From IMG/VR virus record IMGVR_UViG_3300008110_000029: a stretch of DNA of 64,000 nt. One strand, 5' to 3'. Below are positions 2,824 through 19,916 of this stretch, piece after piece (within the stretch, counting starts at the first letter, position 1; the number at the start of each line of letters is the position of its first letter). The DNA is from a virus. Lineage: Duplodnaviria; Heunggongvirae; Uroviricota; Caudoviricetes. A program made the translations under genes and the position numbers. Under the pieces are notes generated by a model. It worked only from the letters and a program-made list of their open reading frames with translations. It was not told the origin of the DNA and ran no database searches.

Positions 2824-2899
2824 AAAAATAAAAGAATACATTAAAAGAAAACGTAGATTAAAAGAACTACGTAAAAGAGATCCGTTTATCTATAAATGA
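2807..2899 (+). CDS. 30-aa basic peptide (MFRLIEKIKEYIKRKRRLKELRKRDPFIYK), absent from ORF track
   Basis: read manually, AAGGA RBS, stop overlaps the carbamoyltransferase ATG (ATGA). Confidence 0.65.
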   Translation: MFRLIEKIKEYIKRKRRLKELRKRDPFIYK

Positions 2900-4365
2900 T
2901 TACTTGGGGGATTTCGGCTAACAGTCACAATGCTGCACTTGCAGTATTTGATGAAGATCATTTAATATTTGCCAGTGAATCGGAAAGATTTAGCAAAATT
3001 AAAAATGATCCGCATCTACATCACGATTTAATTGACTACGCAAAAACTATTGCGGGCGAACCTGATCTAGTATGTTGGTATGAAAAGCCGTGGCTGAAAA
3101 CCATGCGTCAAATATTTGCAGGACAAGATTTTGAATACAATAGTGTTAAAAAATATTTGTCTAGGTACAGCATTAATGCCCCTATAAAAACATTTAGACA
3201 TCATCACAGTCATGCAGCAGCAGGTTATTATACCAGTACATTTAAAGATGCATGTGTTATTGTTATTGATGCAATTGGAGAATTTGAAACTTTATCAATT
3301 TGGAAAGGTCAAGGTAAGAATTTAACAAAAGTATATTCACTTTCTTATCCTGACAGCATTGGTTTATTTTACTCTGCAATGACACAACGATGTGGTTTAA
3401 AACCCAATGAAGAAGAGTACATTCTTATGGGCATGGCCGCATATGGTGACTATTCAGTGTTATTGAGAGACGTAACAAAAGATTTTATACATTTTCCAAC
3501 TGATTATAAACATCCTGTGTTGTTTAAACAAAATTTACATAGAGGATGCAACTGGTGGAAACCTGAACTACAATCTCCTAAGCAGTTATTTGATATTGCA
3601 GCCGCAACACAGAAGATGTATGAAATTTGTTTTGTTAGAATTTTACAGTTCGCACAACAACTTGTTGAAAGTGAAAATTTAGTGTTAATGGGAGGCTGTG
3701 CTTTAAATTGCTCAGCTAATTCAAAAATCTTTGATTACTTTAATGATGCATGGATCATGCCTGCACCAGGGGATAGCGGATCAGCCATTGGTGCAGTGTT
3801 AGCACACAAAGGAACACGTATTAAATGGACAGGACCGTATTTAGGTTACGATATTAGTCCACGAAAATTAAACAGAGAAATTGTTGAATACTTACAGATA
3901 AACAAAATATGTGGAGTAGCTAGAGGCCCTGCAGAATTTGGTCCACGTGCATTGGGCAATAGGAGCTTACTGGCAGATCCCAGGGATCCTAGTATAAAAG
4001 ATCGTGTAAACGAAATAAAGAAAAGAGAAACATTTAGACCATTTGCGCCTGCTATATTAGAAGAACATGCCAACAGGTATTTTGTAATGCCTACAAAGAA
4101 AAGTCCATATATGCAATACACTGCATATTGTCTACAACCAAATTTATTTCCTTCTATTGTTCACAAAGACGGAACCAGTAGAGTTCAAACAGTTGGTCCT
4201 AATGATAATCCTAAATTTAGAGAACTGTTAGAAATGTGGTATGCTAAAACAGGATGCCCTATGTTGTTGAATACCAGTTTGAATATAAAAGGCGAACCTA
4301 TAGTAAACGACCTAGCAGATTCAATGACTTGGGCCAGTACCTATGGTTTACCTGTTTTTAATTAG
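2896..4365 (+). CDS. carbamoyltransferase (NodU/CmcH family)
   Basis: HHHSHAAAGYY, IDAIGE, GGCALNC, PAPGDSGSAIG, EFGPRALGNRSLLADP, RPFAP, LLNTSLN motifs. Confidence 0.93.
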   Translation: MITWGISANSHNAALAVFDEDHLIFASESERFSKIKNDPHLHHDLIDYAKTIAGEPDLVCWYEKPWLKTMRQIFAGQDFEYNSVKKYLSRYSINAPIKTFRHHHSHAAAGYYTSTFKDACVIVIDAIGEFETLSIWKGQGKNLTKVYSLSYPDSIGLFYSAMTQRCGLKPNEEEYILMGMAAYGDYSVLLRDVTKDFIHFPTDYKHPVLFKQNLHRGCNWWKPELQSPKQLFDIAAATQKMYEICFVRILQFAQQLVESENLVLMGGCALNCSANSKIFDYFNDAWIMPAPGDSGSAIGAVLAHKGTRIKWTGPYLGYDISPRKLNREIVEYLQINKICGVARGPAEFGPRALGNRSLLADPRDPSIKDRVNEIKKRETFRPFAPAILEEHANRYFVMPTKKSPYMQYTAYCLQPNLFPSIVHKDGTSRVQTVGPNDNPKFRELLEMWYAKTGCPMLLNTSLNIKGEPIVNDLADSMTWASTYGLPVFN

Positions 4366-11357: not shown

Positions 11358-11591
11358 TTACTCCGGTTTGAACACTAGATATTTGTGCTGTTTCAACAGC
11401 TGGATTGCCGCTCGGACCTCCCTGGCTCTGAGTTCCTGATACTCTAGGTTCTCACGTGCGGCCTTCAGAGTCTGCTCCTCGTCCTGATGATTAAAGAAGT
11501 GGTGTGTGCTGATGTACCACCTCTTACCCTCGTCTATGATCATCTTTATGGTGCCAAGGTTCTTGTACTGCTGGATCTCATTGACTTTCAT
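11358..11591 (-). CDS. hypothetical early protein
   Basis: 77-aa ORF. Confidence 0.6.
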   Translation of the reverse strand: MKVNEIQQYKNLGTIKMIIDEGKRWYISTHHFFNHQDEEQTLKAARENLEYQELRAREVRAAIQLLKQHKYLVFKPE

Positions 11592-11610
11592 AGTGGCTTC
11601 TTTCTAGAAT

Positions 11611-11642
11611 AAAAAAGCCCGGGGAGTCCCCTCAACCCGGGC
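11611..11642 (-). terminator. intrinsic terminator
   Basis: GCCCGG stem plus 6-T tail. Confidence 0.65.
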
Positions 11643-11668
11643 AAGGGGATCCAATCCCCGGAGCAACC

Positions 11669-11851
11669 TTAACGATATCCCTTTTGACGTATCATCAGCG
11701 TGGCCACCCACATCAAGGCCACACCCACTAGGCTGACTGCTAGACTGCACAGCAGATCGTAATCCGTAGTGCTCTGCTCAATGCCGCCTACCCCGCCTGC
11801 GGCTAGGATGATACCCATGAATACAAAAAATGCTATGACTCGATCTGACAT
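11669..11851 (-). CDS. two-TM small membrane protein
   Basis: AGGAGC RBS, own promoter, two hydrophobic segments. Confidence 0.75.
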   Translation of the reverse strand: MSDRVIAFFVFMGIILAAGGVGGIEQSTTDYDLLCSLAVSLVGVALMWVATLMIRQKGYR

Positions 11852-11903
11852 GTTCTGCTCCTTTGTTTAACTGTTTACAGTATAGCTTCTCCGGCCCAAC
11901 CTG

Positions 11904-12035
11904 TCAACCAAAATTTAATTTAATCTGATTGATCTCTCGGACCCGGCCCCGAGGTTTCTTCTGCAGATAGAACGCGAATCCTACGCGAAAGATCTTAACG
12001 AAATGCAGTCCGCCTACTCGCTTGTATGAAATCAT
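11904..12035 (-). CDS. 43-aa basic peptide (MISYKRVGGLHFVKIFRVGFAFY...), absent from track
   Basis: AGGAGCG RBS, manual translation. Confidence 0.65.
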   Translation of the reverse strand: MISYKRVGGLHFVKIFRVGFAFYLQKKPRGRVREINQIKLNFG

Positions 12036-13874: not shown

Positions 13875-13906
13875 AAAATAAAGACCCTGCTGTGTGCAGG
13901 GCCTTT
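13875..13906 (-). terminator. intrinsic terminator
   Basis: CCCTGC/GCAGGG stem plus T-rich tail. Confidence 0.6.
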
Positions 13907-13912
13907 GCTTAG

Positions 13913-14167
13913 TTAATTTACAATTATAATGTTATTTGTTGCTAGTTGCTGTTTTGCTGATTGTAATGCTTTGTTAATTGCTTGTGCTTTTTGTTGTGCA
14001 GTGTCTGTAATATTGCAAATGTCCCCGGTAGCGTAAACTGCGCTGCGTTGTGTTATGTGACTGTTATTGCAGAAGCTTACTAAAATGCGTAGTGTTTTTA
14101 GCTTTTTGTTTTGTACAATTTTAGCAAAAGCTTTTTGTGCAAGTATTGCGTTAGCGTAAGTTTGCAT
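13913..14167 (-). CDS. hypothetical early protein lacking Glu
   Basis: own promoter and AGGAGCG RBS. Confidence 0.75.
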   Translation of the reverse strand: MQTYANAILAQKAFAKIVQNKKLKTLRILVSFCNNSHITQRSAVYATGDICNITDTAQQKAQAINKALQSAKQQLATNNIIIVN

Positions 14168-14239
14168 TGTTGCGCTCCTTTTTGTTTAACAGTGTGTATA
14201 TAATAGCACCAGCTGTCCAAAAAGTCAACCAAAATGTTC

Positions 14240-14266
14240 AATAACCCGGCGCAGTGCCGGGTTATT
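14240..14266 (-). terminator. terminator-like hairpin
   Basis: perfect 11-bp stem AATAACCCGGC/GCCGGGTTATT. Confidence 0.65.
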
Positions 14267-14274
14267 GCTAACAG

Positions 14275-14550
14275 TTACGCATACAAGTAATTGTCGGTGC
14301 AATAGTGTACAGTTTTATAAAACTTGCTTTGTGCGTCGGTGTACATGTGCATAATTGTGTCGCAAAGTTGGACTGCATTTTTATTTTGCATAAACTGTAC
14401 AAGTGCTGCGTAAATTGTAACAATGTCGGTGTGTTGCTCGGCGCAGACAGTGTTGTCGGCGTTGACGTCGACAGTGCGTAAGTATTTTGCAATGTCGGCT
14501 TGCAAAAGTTGTACAATAATTGCTACGTCGGCGTTAGTAACTTTTTGCAT
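14275..14550 (-). CDS. hypothetical early protein (start MQKVTN)
   Basis: own promoter, GGAGC RBS. Confidence 0.75.
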   Translation of the reverse strand: MQKVTNADVAIIVQLLQADIAKYLRTVDVNADNTVCAEQHTDIVTIYAALVQFMQNKNAVQLCDTIMHMYTDAQSKFYKTVHYCTDNYLYA

Positions 14551-14680
14551 TGTTAGCTCCGGTAGTTGCACTGCGTTTTGCAGTGTTTAAATTATAGTAC
14601 CAAAACGCCGGACTGTCAACCAAAAAATTAGTTGTTAAAAAAGCAACCGGGTCAGTTGGGGGGCGTGTGCCCCCCTCCCC

Positions 14681-15160
14681 TTACTCTGCAGTTACCACGC
14701 TGCCTAGTTTGATGTTAAACACAATGCTGTCGTCCCCCGCCCTAAACTCGCTTGCCAGTGCCGCTGCCTGCGCCTCATCCCTAGTAATCTCTACACCGTT
14801 GCGTGTGTAGCGTGGCGCTTTGCGTTCCGCAGTCTTGTCCATTGTGCATCGCACATAGTATTCGCCCTTGTGTGCGATAATGTAGGGGAATACAGCCCAC
14901 TCGCCCCATGGCAAACCTGCATTCTCTGCTGGCAGTTCGCCAGTTGCTCGCTTCTCAATCACTTCCTCAATCTCGTCGTATACCTGTCCGATGATTGCGG
15001 TAAACTCTGAACGCTTAACAATAGCGTCCTGTCCCTTGCGTACCTTCAACATACGCTCCGTGACAAACTTGACTGGCTGTTGCTTCTTGCTCAACACCAA
15101 GTCCAACAGTTGTTGTGTGTTGTTGTCTGTGCCCTGAACTACTAGTTGTGCTATTTGCAT
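14681..15160 (-). CDS. conserved phage hypothetical protein
   Basis: own promoter and AGGAGC RBS, GLPWGEW..FPYII.HKG motif. Confidence 0.8.
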   Translation of the reverse strand: MQIAQLVVQGTDNNTQQLLDLVLSKKQQPVKFVTERMLKVRKGQDAIVKRSEFTAIIGQVYDEIEEVIEKRATGELPAENAGLPWGEWAVFPYIIAHKGEYYVRCTMDKTAERKAPRYTRNGVEITRDEAQAAALASEFRAGDDSIVFNIKLGSVVTAE

Positions 15161-15328
15161 TTGTTGCTCCTTAGTTGCCTGCGTATCGCAGTATCATTAG
15201 TATATGGCCAGCACACCAAAATGTCAACCAAAATATCAAATGTCCCATCAGTCCGTAGGGTTATTCATCATGTTCGTTCATCGTCATCATGCAGACATTC
15301 TAACACCGTTCGTCCATTTGGTCAAGCC

Positions 15329-17282: not shown

Positions 17283-17348
17283 GGGTTCTCCATAAAGTGT
17301 TGTTTAGTTCAAACAGTATAACAGGGGGTTGCCCCCCTGTCAACCAAT

Positions 17349-17702
17349 TTATGCCTCTGCAAATGCCTCCAACGCTGCCTGTGCCGCACCGTCCAGCATT
17401 ACGCCATCTTGTGCTTTAATCTTGTCTGCAGTTACCTTTATGCGGTATGCGTCCATCTCTGCAGTCTTTGCTTCCATAGCAGGCCACACTACGTCTTGCG
17501 GGTTAAGGTAAGCACCTGTGTAGTCTACCTTGTCCTCTTTCAGTGTAATCTCGCCTGCCTTAATGCCTTCAAACACCATGCCCCATGTAGGCTGTTGCGG
17601 ACGGCCAGTAGGGCCAAACAGTTCCACTGCCTTTGCCTGCAGTTTCTCTGTTGCAATTTCATTCAAGCGACGGAGAAAGTAATTGCGTTGTTCCTGTTCC
17701 AT
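17349..17702 (-). CDS. hypothetical early protein
   Basis: own promoter and AGGAGCG RBS. Confidence 0.8.
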   Translation of the reverse strand: MEQEQRNYFLRRLNEIATEKLQAKAVELFGPTGRPQQPTWGMVFEGIKAGEITLKEDKVDYTGAYLNPQDVVWPAMEAKTAEMDAYRIKVTADKIKAQDGVMLDGAAQAALEAFAEA

Positions 17703-17781
17703 AATACGCTCCTAAAAAGTCTGTCACTGCAAAATTGCAGTGTGTGTATATTAACACACACTGCCCAATCTGTCAACCGTT

Positions 17782-18093
17782 TTATGCCTCAAAATTTTCT
17801 ACAATCATAATACGTCCAGCCAGCAAGTCTTCTACCAGTTGCACTGCTCGCCGCTCTGTGCCGCCAATGTGCCAGTCATAGTGCCCCATGGGAGTGCCAT
17901 ACTCTTTCCAGTCGTAAATCGTTGCTACTGTGCCGTCGCTAAACTCAATGCACCACTCCTGCGTGGTCTTGTCGCCACCGCCCATCCCCTCCCCCAGCAA
18001 GTCCTGCAGCTTTGCAAAGGTGGTTCCTACATAGCCCTGCAGATGTGTGCCGTTGAACTTTTCTGCAAAGTAATCGTAAACTCGTGCTTCCAT
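17782..18093 (-). CDS. conserved phage hypothetical protein
   Basis: own promoter and RBS, DKT..EW...ATIYDWK...WHIGG. Confidence 0.8.
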   Translation of the reverse strand: MEARVYDYFAEKFNGTHLQGYVGTTFAKLQDLLGEGMGGGDKTTQEWCIEFSDGTVATIYDWKEYGTPMGHYDWHIGGTERRAVQLVEDLLAGRIMIVENFEA

Positions 18094-18166
18094 GTTGCGC
18101 TCCTAGTATGTCACTGCGTTATTGCAGTGTGTGTATAGTAACACACACTGCCCAAAATGTCAAGTG

Positions 18167-18382
18167 TTAAATTGTGCTGTACTTTCTGTATTCCTTGCCA
18201 CCCACGTTGCTGTACCACAGCCCGTTAGTTTTTTTGTAATAACCCTGCTTGTACCAGTTTTTAATCTGTGTTGCGTGTTGCTGTCTGCCCTGCTCTGCAA
18301 TAGCTTGTTCCAACGTCATTGTAGCACCTGCTGCGTCTTGTGCTGCCTGCTGTGCTTGTTGTTGTGCGTGTAGTGCTAGCAT
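18167..18382 (-). CDS. Gln/Ala-rich early protein
   Basis: own promoter and AGGAGC RBS. Confidence 0.7.
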   Translation of the reverse strand: MLALHAQQQAQQAAQDAAGATMTLEQAIAEQGRQQHATQIKNWYKQGYYKKTNGLWYSNVGGKEYRKYSTI

Positions 18383-18460
18383 AGCTTGCTCCTTAGTTGC
18401 ACTGCGTTATTGCAGTGTGTGTATATTAACACACACTGCCCAAAATGTCAACCAAAATGT

Positions 18461-18784
18461 TTATACTTCCATGCTTGCAAGTTCGTCTTCTTGCATACCC
18501 TGCTCTGTAAAGCGCACACCAAACCCTAGTGCATCACTAATAGCACTTTCAAATGCACTGTCTGTGTATATGTCCCATGTGCTGTTGTGCGTTACATTAA
18601 CCATAACGCTTACATTGTCGTCATAAGCATTTGTCACAATGCTAATGCCTGTCACACGCACTTGCCTGTCAGCCTCGCAGCCCCACAAGCCGTCGCCAGC
18701 TGTCCAAACAGTAAAGTCGCAGTCAAAGTCTTGTGCAGTGTAGTCGCCGTCAACCTCAAACCGTGTAAGTGTAAGTTTTTGCAT
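18461..18784 (-). CDS. acidic early protein
   Basis: own promoter and AGGAGC RBS. Confidence 0.8.
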   Translation of the reverse strand: MQKLTLTRFEVDGDYTAQDFDCDFTVWTAGDGLWGCEADRQVRVTGISIVTNAYDDNVSVMVNVTHNSTWDIYTDSAFESAISDALGFGVRFTEQGMQEDELASMEV

Positions 18785-18858
18785 TGTGTGCTCCTGTGTG
18801 TCACTGCGTTAGTGCAGTGTGTATATAATAGCACCAGCTGTTCAAAATGTCAACCAAA

Positions 18859-19017
18859 TTATTCTGCGTAACCGTCTTCTTCCCAGCCCTCGTAGGTGGC
18901 ATTAACTCCCGCAGAGTTTACATCAGTCATCCCAGCAATCTCGTCTGCTGCTTCTGCTGTGTCTGCTTCAACCTGTAAAGTATATGTTACAGTCTGTGTG
19001 TAATAAAATTTAGGCAT
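18859..19017 (-). CDS. small acidic protein (start MPKFYY)
   Basis: own promoter and AGGAGCG RBS. Confidence 0.75.
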   Translation of the reverse strand: MPKFYYTQTVTYTLQVEADTAEAADEIAGMTDVNSAGVNATYEGWEEDGYAE

Positions 19018-19074
19018 CTCTCGCTCCTGTAAAATTAAACAGCGTGTGTATAGTAACACACGCTGTCCAAAATA

Positions 19075-19365
19075 TCAATCTCCAGAATCAATTTGAAAAC
19101 GATCTCCACACTCACTGCAGGTGAATTCTGTCAGACACCTGCCTACATTCTTAGAAACATATTTGTGGGTGCAAGGCACTCCATCTTTGTCAAGCCGTAC
19201 TTCGCCTGTAGGCCGACCGTACATGTACTGACCACCGCAGTTCGTGCAGGGCACAGTGTCTGTGTCCTTGTCATAGCCAGCGATAACCTTCTTGTATCGC
19301 TCCATACTGATCGGCACTGCGACTCTGCCGCTACCATTACAAACTGGACAACATCCTTTTTCCAT
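19075..19365 (-). CDS. Cys-rich zinc-finger protein (DnaJ-type CxxCxGxG repeats)
   Basis: CPVCNGSG, CTNCGG and CSEC, own promoter and RBS. Confidence 0.75.
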   Translation of the reverse strand: MEKGCCPVCNGSGRVAVPISMERYKKVIAGYDKDTDTVPCTNCGGQYMYGRPTGEVRLDKDGVPCTHKYVSKNVGRCLTEFTCSECGDRFQIDSGD

Positions 19366-19426
19366 GTTTCGCTCCTAATTTCTTACTGTATGTCTAGTAT
19401 AGCACCACTCGTCCAAAATGTCAACC

Positions 19427-19459
19427 AAAATAAAAGCTGTGGCATTTCTGCCACAGCTT
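19427..19459 (-). terminator. intrinsic terminator
   Basis: 11-bp stem AAGCTGTGGCA/TGCCACAGCTT plus T-rich tail. Confidence 0.75.
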
Positions 19460-19479
19460 CCTTAGTTGCTAAATCTTAA

Positions 19480-19737
19480 TTAAAACTGTAAATTACGCCC
19501 TGTGCGCTCTCGCTTTTTACTACGCTTGTCTACTTTAACTGCAATTTTAGTCTTGCGGTAGTTAATGTGTATGCCTTGTGCGCTAAACACTTCCCCCAGC
19601 ACTAGCTTCATACGCTCTGCGCGGAGTTTTTGCTTGTCTGTATACAAGCTAGCGTTGGCAATATTGCGCATACTTGCATCCTGCGCTGCCCACCACTTAA
19701 CAGTTGCTTCTTTAGTATCCAGTTGCTTATAACGCAT
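19480..19737 (-). CDS. basic early protein
   Basis: own promoter and AGGAGCG RBS. Confidence 0.7.
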   Translation of the reverse strand: MRYKQLDTKEATVKWWAAQDASMRNIANASLYTDKQKLRAERMKLVLGEVFSAQGIHINYRKTKIAVKVDKRSKKRERTGRNLQF

Positions 19738-19802
19738 AACACGCTCCTTGGGTTACACTGCACATCGCAGTATCAATACTATAACACCAGTTGTCCAATC
19801 TG

Positions 19803-19916
19803 TCAACCAATAAAAACCCAGTAGGCAGTAAGGACAACGGCGTAGATCACAAGTGCGGGGATGACCTGTGACATTGTGTCACTAACAATCCATTCCGCGT
19901 ATTCTTTATCGTTCAT
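19803..19916 (-). CDS. 37-aa membrane peptide, absent from track
   Basis: ATGA coupling, C-terminal TM. Confidence 0.55.
   Translation of the reverse strand: MNDKEYAEWIVSDTMSQVIPALVIYAVVLTAYWVFIG

Follow-up and report, generated by a model that had tools for sequence, protein, structure and literature searches.

Introduction

The transcription termination factor Rho binds RNA through primary binding site (PBS) clefts whose ligand is the dinucleotide 5'-YC (PMC12360218, PMC6144790), and its avoidance shapes the composition of coding strands: in Bacillus subtilis, a purine-ward bias avoids Rho and synonymous enrichment in pyrimidines creates Rho termination (PMC13323073). Here we describe a block of small early genes in a 64,000-nt stretch of DNA from a tailed phage (Caudoviricetes; IMG/VR record IMGVR_UViG_3300008110_000029; hereafter the window), the sense strand of which is free of 5'-YC over 839 nt, and which we tentatively read as a case of Rho evasion. 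The block resembles the Rho systems in the dinucleotide concerned, in the strand, which is that of the nascent RNA, and in the shift of composition (more purine, less T, G above C). It differs from Rho-avoiding bias in that an absolute ban on one degenerate dinucleotide applies to a few phage early genes with normal C content and proline-free proteins, whereas the bias described in bacteria with runaway transcription is statistical and extends over the whole genome (PMC13323073); the role that we propose for Rho is read from sequence.

Other systems come close in different respects. In single-protein production with the mRNA interferase MazF, a message works by lacking the short word of the enzyme, ACA, leaders included (PMC9102682, PMC5408214); the words of mRNA interferases have 3 to 7 bases and the enzyme is known, whereas here the word is degenerate, has two bases and has no known enzyme. 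That an mRNA dinucleotide can be the target of an antiphage effector is illustrated by CmdTAC, in which CmdT ADP-ribosylates the adenine of GA in single-stranded mRNA (PMC11618068). However, CmdT reads GA, and the zone mRNA has 49 GA and no YC, so that CmdT is not what is evaded. At the DNA level, DpdA enzymes introduce 7-deazaguanines at GA and GGC in phage CAjan (PMC7544227) and at GA only in phage iggy (PMC10484667), motifs similar to the GA and GG that the template strand of our locus lacks. In contrast to these phages, the relatives that we searched, including one that is 98% complete, yielded no DpdA gene, the ban hits all GG and not just GGC, and only some early genes obey it. Avoidance of short motifs or restriction sites is known from early or first-entering phage DNA, for example the first-step-transfer region of T5. 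The likeness there lies in the local depletion of a short word in the earliest-acting part of a genome, but the usual sites have 4 to 8 bases and are avoided on both strands, whereas a dinucleotide on a single strand is concerned here. The novelty thus lies in motif avoidance, or Rho-avoiding composition, taken to an absolute and strand-specific dinucleotide ban in putative viral immediate-early genes, and we found no published description of YC-free phage genes.

Results

The sense strand of the zone lacks both TC and CC

A sequence-only reading of the window had drawn attention to 857 nt of the + strand without a single GA. Our recount agrees with it (0 GA in 18057-18913), as it does for the surroundings, where 7 GA had been reported in 17341-18913 and one, which lies at 19624, in 19350-19830; the density of about 3 per 60 nt given for neighbouring genes is matched by the window average of 3.3. 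The gap between the GA at 18055 and that at 18914 is, with 859 nt, the longest in the 64-kb window. A sliding-window scan of the 16 dinucleotides revealed that the avoided word, proposed to be GA/TC, is in fact broader: on the + strand the count of GG in 18056-18894 is also zero, and each G has C or T after it. The word is therefore 5'-GR on the + strand and 5'-YC on the minus strand. Since the genes of the zone are all encoded on the minus strand, the latter is the sense strand, and it lacks CC in addition to the TC whose absence had been noted.

On its sense strand, the core zone (18056-18894, minus strand, 839 nt) holds 0 YC where about 70 are expected from the density on the sense strand of other genes (~0.08 per nt). 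The chance of such a zero is roughly e^-70, which excludes chance as the cause. The same strand still has 49 GA and 52 GG, which amounts to 101 YC in the 839 nt of the antisense strand. From this asymmetry it follows that the reader of the word acts on the mRNA, on the displaced non-template strand or, with the word read as GR, on the template strand. Avoidance of palindromic N6-methyladenine (m6A) restriction-modification sites, suggested earlier as a cause, is refuted by the same counts: a YC-free stretch is necessarily without GATC and GANTC, but only one strand has been purged, the sense strand keeps its GA and GG, and CC has been purged too. Avoidance of CRISPR protospacer-adjacent motifs was rejected as well, as it would be strand-symmetric.

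Cytosine itself is not avoided. Its total on the sense strand is 19.8% in the zone and 19.0% in reference genes, with AC (1.81x), GC (1.60x) and CA (1.87x) raised, TT at an observed/expected ratio of 1.46 and CT, at 1.02, without excess. C has thus been shifted behind purines, which is a context rule and neither C avoidance nor C-to-T decay. These figures bear on the idea that the non-template strand, exposed as single-stranded DNA (ssDNA) in heavily transcribed early genes, is attacked at YC by an APOBEC-like deaminase, an enzyme resembling T4 endonuclease IV or one of the DarT type. The strand would be the same as for models at the RNA level, APOBEC3 enzymes classically act on C in TC and CC, and cleavage of ssDNA by T4 endonuclease IV falls 5' of dC. 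Nonetheless, with C not lowered and CT not in excess, deamination has left no mutational footprint, contrary to what the cytidine deaminases invoked by the sequence-only reading would lead one to expect, and the DarT enzymes that it also invoked fare no better, because their TNTC motif cannot account for the loss of every TC and CC. Moreover, the characterised bacterial deaminase toxins behave differently, DddA being TC-specific on double-stranded DNA, so that both strands are hit, and SsdA acting on ssDNA independently of context. Terminator-coding DNA, although equally exposed, is YC-rich, and the polymerase flux from tandem promoters should rise downstream, where the depletion instead falls off. 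We therefore regard an attack on the displaced strand as improbable. UV (6-4) photoproducts at TC/CC were rejected because the purge affects the non-template strand and spares TT and CT.

The genes of the zone, which we designate by letters, are also purine-rich (78th-98th percentile), T-poor (mostly 0-15th percentile; gene D, 35th) and richer in G than in C (G-C skew mostly at the 82nd-99th percentile; gene E, 38th). A second, weaker YC-depleted cluster, with genes M, N and O, lies at ~13880-15230.

The ban is selected and acts on nucleotides

As null model we resampled synonymous codons with the protein sequence kept and counted YC on the sense strand. Genes D (18461-18784) and E (18167-18382), both, like all genes named here by coordinates, on the minus strand, have 0 YC each, the null means being 15.9 and 10.8 and the null minima 9 and 5. 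Around them, observed counts are 4 in gene A (19480-19737; null mean 12.4, minimum 4), 4 in gene C (18859-19017; 7.0, minimum 1), 8 in gene F (17782-18093; 15.4, minimum 6) and 15 in gene G (17349-17702; 23.4, minimum 13). The second cluster behaves similarly, with 4 YC in gene O (13913-14167; 15.3, minimum 8) and 17 in gene M (14681-15160; 30.7, minimum 18). The residual YC in the neighbours of D and E are mostly avoidable, and the purge there is graded and not saturated. Two other genes are YC-normal under the same null, namely gene H (39 observed; mean 28.1, minimum 19) and the Zn-ribbon gene inside the block (19075-19365; 21 observed; mean 21.0, minimum 14). The latter also has 12 GA, in keeping with the earlier remark that this Zn-finger gene is not depleted. 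The gene-by-gene character of the pattern and its extension to promoters were likewise recognised correctly, and we can add that leaders and ribosome-binding regions obey the ban: for D and E, leaders, intergenic promoters and coding sequences are all without YC.

A second test addressed codon order. We pooled 23 YC-free open reading frames (ORFs; 1981 codons) from the window and from independent relatives of several lineages. Pyrimidine-ending codons number 994 in this set and C-starting codons 267, and they are adjacent in no case, giving 0 NNY-CNN junctions where 129.5 are expected under random codon order. The encoded proteins have no proline and are strongly acidic. Taken together, the YC-free leaders and promoters, the junction test and the synonymous nulls indicate that the constraint lies on the nucleotides and has reshaped the proteins, not the reverse. 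This agrees with the proposal of a selected avoidance at the nucleotide level. A by-product of codon usage or amino-acid composition is refuted by the two nulls and by the leaders and promoters that obey the ban, and explanations based on tRNAs or codons fail on the junction test and the YC-free leaders. We conclude that the ban is selected, specific to the sense strand and conserved.

The ban is conserved in related phages

The source phage is large and uncultured, and the window encodes ribonucleotide reductase, DnaB, primase, ligase and MoxR/VWA proteins. No nucleotide match to the window was found among deposited phages, and relatives, of which there are many, were taken from IMG/VR. The closest one with enough flanking sequence (L002) has a YC-free run of 665 nt on the sense strand. 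Homologues of D with 57-72% protein identity, from phages of 43-52% GC, hold 0-3 YC and sit in YC-free runs of 288-1271 nt; those of ~40% identity in L108, L120 and L121 have 0 YC, and four further contigs from genome bins show the same ban. Phages with the ban span 41-52% GC and many samples. Between lineages, 30-50% of the codons for identical residues differ, and the persistence of only 0-3 YC despite this synonymous turnover means that the ban has been kept by selection through divergence. More distant D homologues (~44% identity), found in L099 (43% GC) and in L100-L104 (37% GC), are not purged.

In a 353-kb relative that is 98% complete, there is exactly one YC-free zone, of 921 nt; the longest run after it that is free of any of 48 degenerate-dinucleotide classes measures 262 nt, and when the 457 ORFs are ranked by YC density, zone genes take three of the four lowest places. 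In the fetched loci, as in the window, every YC-free run lies on the sense strand, and runs free of GR on that strand are confined to a single short one of 213 nt (L213). In all lineages the purge covers the D and O families, whereas that of F, G, A, C, E and M is peculiar to the window's phage. This phage has therefore carried the ban over to the genes adjoining D and E, and its depleted region is the widest seen.

Beyond these relatives, no D homologue was found among 50,697 deposited phages, and for F there were distant matches only. The first 100 kb of the cultured Methylophilales phage Melnitz contain no YC-free island. Matches of the D family in bacterial genome bins gave no usable host call, as they fell in four unrelated phyla and look like mis-binned phage contigs. 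The conserved C-terminal half of the D family (YTDSGF..AIS..FTEQGMQ) also forms the C-terminal portion of a protein of 795 aa in phages with 37% GC (L100, ~4001-4267), where it is not YC-depleted.

Two further observations concern more remote loci and intergenic regions. Distant phages of 28-30% GC have single early genes that are nearly C-free on the sense strand (L163, 217-669; L184, 5935-7197), one such gene of 453 nt having a single C; these may represent a cruder form of the same avoidance. In several relatives, intergenic regions within YC-free zones keep only the 3' arm of a terminator, CTGTAGGGTTATT (L081, 3925-3945; L083, 3915-3935; L120, 6005-6030 and 6240-6262). Outside the zones the hairpin is complete (AACCCTACAG...CTGTAGGGTT), and within them the YC-bearing 5' arm is missing.

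The zone is an array of small early genes with their own promoters

The region is an array of small genes. Every one has a sigma-70 promoter close to consensus (TTGACA, 17 nt, TATAAT-like) together with a strong AGGAG site, and the placement of the depletion in early genes is supported by these sigma-70-type promoters. On the minus strand, promoters lie at 19778-19806 for A (TTGACA-17-TATAGT), 19396-19424 for the Zn-ribbon gene, 19050-19078 for C, 18825-18853 for D, 18423-18451 for E, 18135-18163 for F and 17748-17776 for G. Gene A forms its own promoter-to-terminator unit, closed by an intrinsic terminator at 19432-19461 that has a YC. The Zn-ribbon gene, C, D, E, F and G run without intrinsic terminators up to a terminator-like GC hairpin (17342-17319), which ends the depleted block and overlaps the promoter of the YC-normal gene H. 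In the cluster of M, N and O, by comparison, the genes are single-gene units with terminators, the stems of which have YC, as seen in the intrinsic terminator after O (13880-13906). In a promoter-aligned YC profile, the part that is not transcribed measures only ~45 nt and is set by the promoter consensus.

Gene D encodes 107 aa, is acidic, lacks proline and is the constant zone member in all relatives; the basic, proline-free product of gene O (84 aa) represents the second constant zone family. Gene E encodes a Gln/Ala-rich protein of 71 aa without proline, C an acidic one of 52 aa and A a basic one of 85 aa, also without proline. The products of F and G have 103 and 117 aa; homologues of F elsewhere carry 13-32 YC, and a 75%-identical homologue of G has 36. 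In the second cluster, M encodes 159 aa, and N (14275-14550) encodes 91 aa with no Pro and no Gly and has few TC. GG is also absent from the sense strand of gene N. Of the eight CC in this gene, seven precede GA, and six of these belong to a repeated CCGAC (GCC-GAC or ACC-GAC). The Zn-ribbon gene has its own promoter within the depleted block and appears either to have been inserted later or not to be subject to the rule; in L081, too, the homologous gene is YC-normal.

Hairpins of the zone use (GT)n/(AC)n and CAGTG-type steps, both in promoter palindromes and in the leader hairpin CACTGC-AATAAC-GCAGTG, because a YC-free arm forces a GR-free partner and these steps are the only YC-free pairing. 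In the promoter of E, for instance, a (GT)n/(AC)n palindrome carries the -10 element in its loop. More generally, in zone promoters (18398-18451, 17725-17776 and 18110-18163, minus strand) the -10 hexamer occupies the loop of a 10-11-bp palindrome, CAGTGTGTGT..ACACACACTG; the leader hairpin follows directly after the predicted start, and all these stems consist solely of steps legal under a ban on both YC and GR. In and around gene O, as in L002 at 11550-12000, the sense strand is poor in GA/GG as well as in TC/CC, and the GR count of gene O falls in the low tail of the synonymous null in five of six lineages. Several early promoter spacers (18834-18841 and 14209-14216, minus strand) contain GCTGGTG, that is, seven of the eight bases of Escherichia coli Chi.

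Searches of the gene content and a template-strand alternative

Searches of Pfam, PHROGs and PADLOC gave no match for the zone proteins or other early proteins, with two exceptions: the Zn-ribbon gene matched a PHROG of unknown function and, weakly, a Zn-ribbon, and gene I matched Spo0A_C below threshold. In the zone proteins we detected neither a nuclease or deaminase family nor one related to defence, and in the early region no nuclease family. Structure models of D (pLDDT 90.7) and O (pLDDT 77.8) had no informative match in the PDB or the AlphaFold DB. In the relatives, a Rho RNA-binding domain was not found, a dCMP-type deaminase domain occurs in two partial genomes and is absent from the complete one, and a cold-shock protein gene is present but commonplace. 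Between the primase and DnaB helicase genes of the window (2896-4365) lies a gene for a NodU/CmcH-type carbamoyltransferase, which may act on nucleic acid or nucleotides.

This gene content has a bearing on a further explanation, which places the constraint on the template strand. There, 5'-GR would bear a phage-made DNA mark or be a damage hot spot, and the first genes would have to suit the unmodified host RNA polymerase. The + strand is indeed the template and lacks GA and GG, which recalls the targets of phage DpdA enzymes (GA and GGC, or GA only; PMC7544227, PMC10484667), and the carbamoyltransferase gene sits between replication genes, primase and helicase. One blocking lesion per template would also account for both the complete purge and the exempt terminators. 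However, PF01702 (TGT/DpdA) had no match in four relatives, one of them 98% complete, no C5-methyltransferase gene was found in the relatives, the 98%-complete one included, and QueC was represented in them only by a weak, 26-bit N-terminal PP-loop fragment. The suggestion of the sequence-only reading that these genes stay free of the phage's own modification therefore finds no counterpart in the modification genes sought. To our knowledge, 7-deazaguanines do not block polymerases. Furthermore, most other sigma-70-driven early genes (H to L and the Zn-ribbon gene) are not purged although they lie on the same parental DNA, and the sense-strand G of the -35 element TTGACA, which is in a GA step, is kept. 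Guanine oxidation at template 5'-GG/GA is a minor variant of this explanation, but it would not account for the retention of template dipyrimidines, the main sites of sunlight lesions. We consider a constraint on the template strand unlikely.

Discussion

We found that a block of phage early genes is written without 5'-YC on its sense strand. In our best reading, which we put at a probability of roughly 0.38, the resulting transcripts would lack a ligand for the YC-specific Rho PBS. We infer that the reader may be Rho and that it may act at the level of RNA. According to this model, the block would consist of immediate-early transcription units read by the host sigma-70 RNA polymerase, and purifying selection would keep their sense strand, hence the mRNA including leaders and intergenic promoters, free of 5'-YC. 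Given six PBS clefts that each take one 5'-YC, an RNA devoid of YC would present no rut (Rho utilization) site, whatever its C content. The first transcripts would consequently be invisible to the host termination factor, and their transcription could be freed from tight ribosome coupling in the first minutes, before phage tRNAs and other takeover functions are available.

Several findings argue for Rho. Among established bacterial readers, the Rho PBS is the only one that is nearly universal and recognises exactly 5'-YC in single-stranded RNA, and the avoided word, with TC and CC both at zero and AC and GC raised, matches its ligand. The zone also displays the further features of Rho avoidance, its genes being purine-rich, T-poor and without excess of C over G and its antisense strand rich in YC, and this shift goes in the same direction as the experimental avoidance of Rho in B. 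subtilis. Units begin at consensus promoters just past terminators, and terminator stems are exempt from the ban, as expected if only the RNA upstream of the 3' end matters. That the ban recurs across many samples, in phages with a GC content of 41-52%, suggests that its reader is widely conserved and not a sporadic defence system. Finally, the 98%-complete relative showed no detectable gene for an RNA polymerase or a sigma factor, so that the host polymerase is probably used throughout and Rho would be relevant.

On the other hand, a number of observations weigh against Rho. Its binding is multivalent and should tolerate a single YC, yet not one occurs over stretches of 0.8-1.3 kb. The purge includes A and O, short units of one gene each with strong ribosome-binding sites, although translation normally protects an mRNA from Rho. 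The C content has not fallen and even lies above the prediction of a null that imposes only the YC ban. The rest of the genome (roughly 450 genes) is also read by the host polymerase and is not purged, and Rho does not explain the extra poverty of gene O in GR.

The completeness of the purge and its gene-by-gene pattern are explained better by an RNA enzyme for which a single hit suffices. Such an enzyme, not described so far, would cut or covalently modify single-stranded RNA at 5'-YC as an endoribonuclease, an RNA ADP-ribosyltransferase or an RNA deaminase. It might be an abortive-infection effector of the host or a host-shutoff weapon of the phage, against which the first genes, perhaps including that of an inhibitor, would have been written immune in the way that ACA-less mRNAs are immune to MazF. 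A complete purge is what one expects if one hit inactivates a message. Separate promoters for each gene, the purge of short single-gene units, the graded depletion around D and E (4 YC in C, 0 in D, 0 in E, 8 in F, 15 in G and 39 in H), the free use of C behind purines and the exemption of the double-stranded terminator stems would all follow, and precedents exist in CmdT, which acts at GA (PMC11618068), and in MazF with ACA-less messages (PMC9102682, PMC5408214). However, our literature searches found no enzyme of this kind, and the zone proteins show no nuclease, deaminase or defence family. We know of no RNase or RNA modifier with YC specificity. A sporadic host system also fits poorly with a strict ban over many lineages, and a weapon borne by the phage would need to be switched off before its ~450 YC-normal genes are expressed. 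We thus hold this explanation, the strongest rival to Rho, to be possible but doubtful. In its most general form, infected cells might contain a host- or phage-encoded activity that cuts or chemically marks every YC step of single-stranded RNA or of the displaced DNA strand, and during which the YC-free first genes, possibly including an antidote of the D or O family, would alone be expressed; we would not count on such an activity, which would be the natural equivalent of the single-protein-production trick with MazF and ACA-less messages.

Whichever reader is at work, a rule of two letters on one strand overrides both codon choice and protein composition in defined viral genes, whose products have no proline and no forbidden dipeptides. 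If Rho is the reader, the phage would escape host surveillance of foreign transcripts in cis, by sequence only and with no antiterminator protein; the Rho-driven 'hidden code' would then reach from bacterial genomes to viruses and provide a design rule for termination-proof genes. If the reader is another one, the ban would be the fingerprint of a dinucleotide-specific nucleic-acid enzyme still to be discovered, with promise as a tool and as a new mechanism of defence or takeover. In either case, the YC-free signature offers a cheap marker of immediate-early genes in uncultured giant phages.

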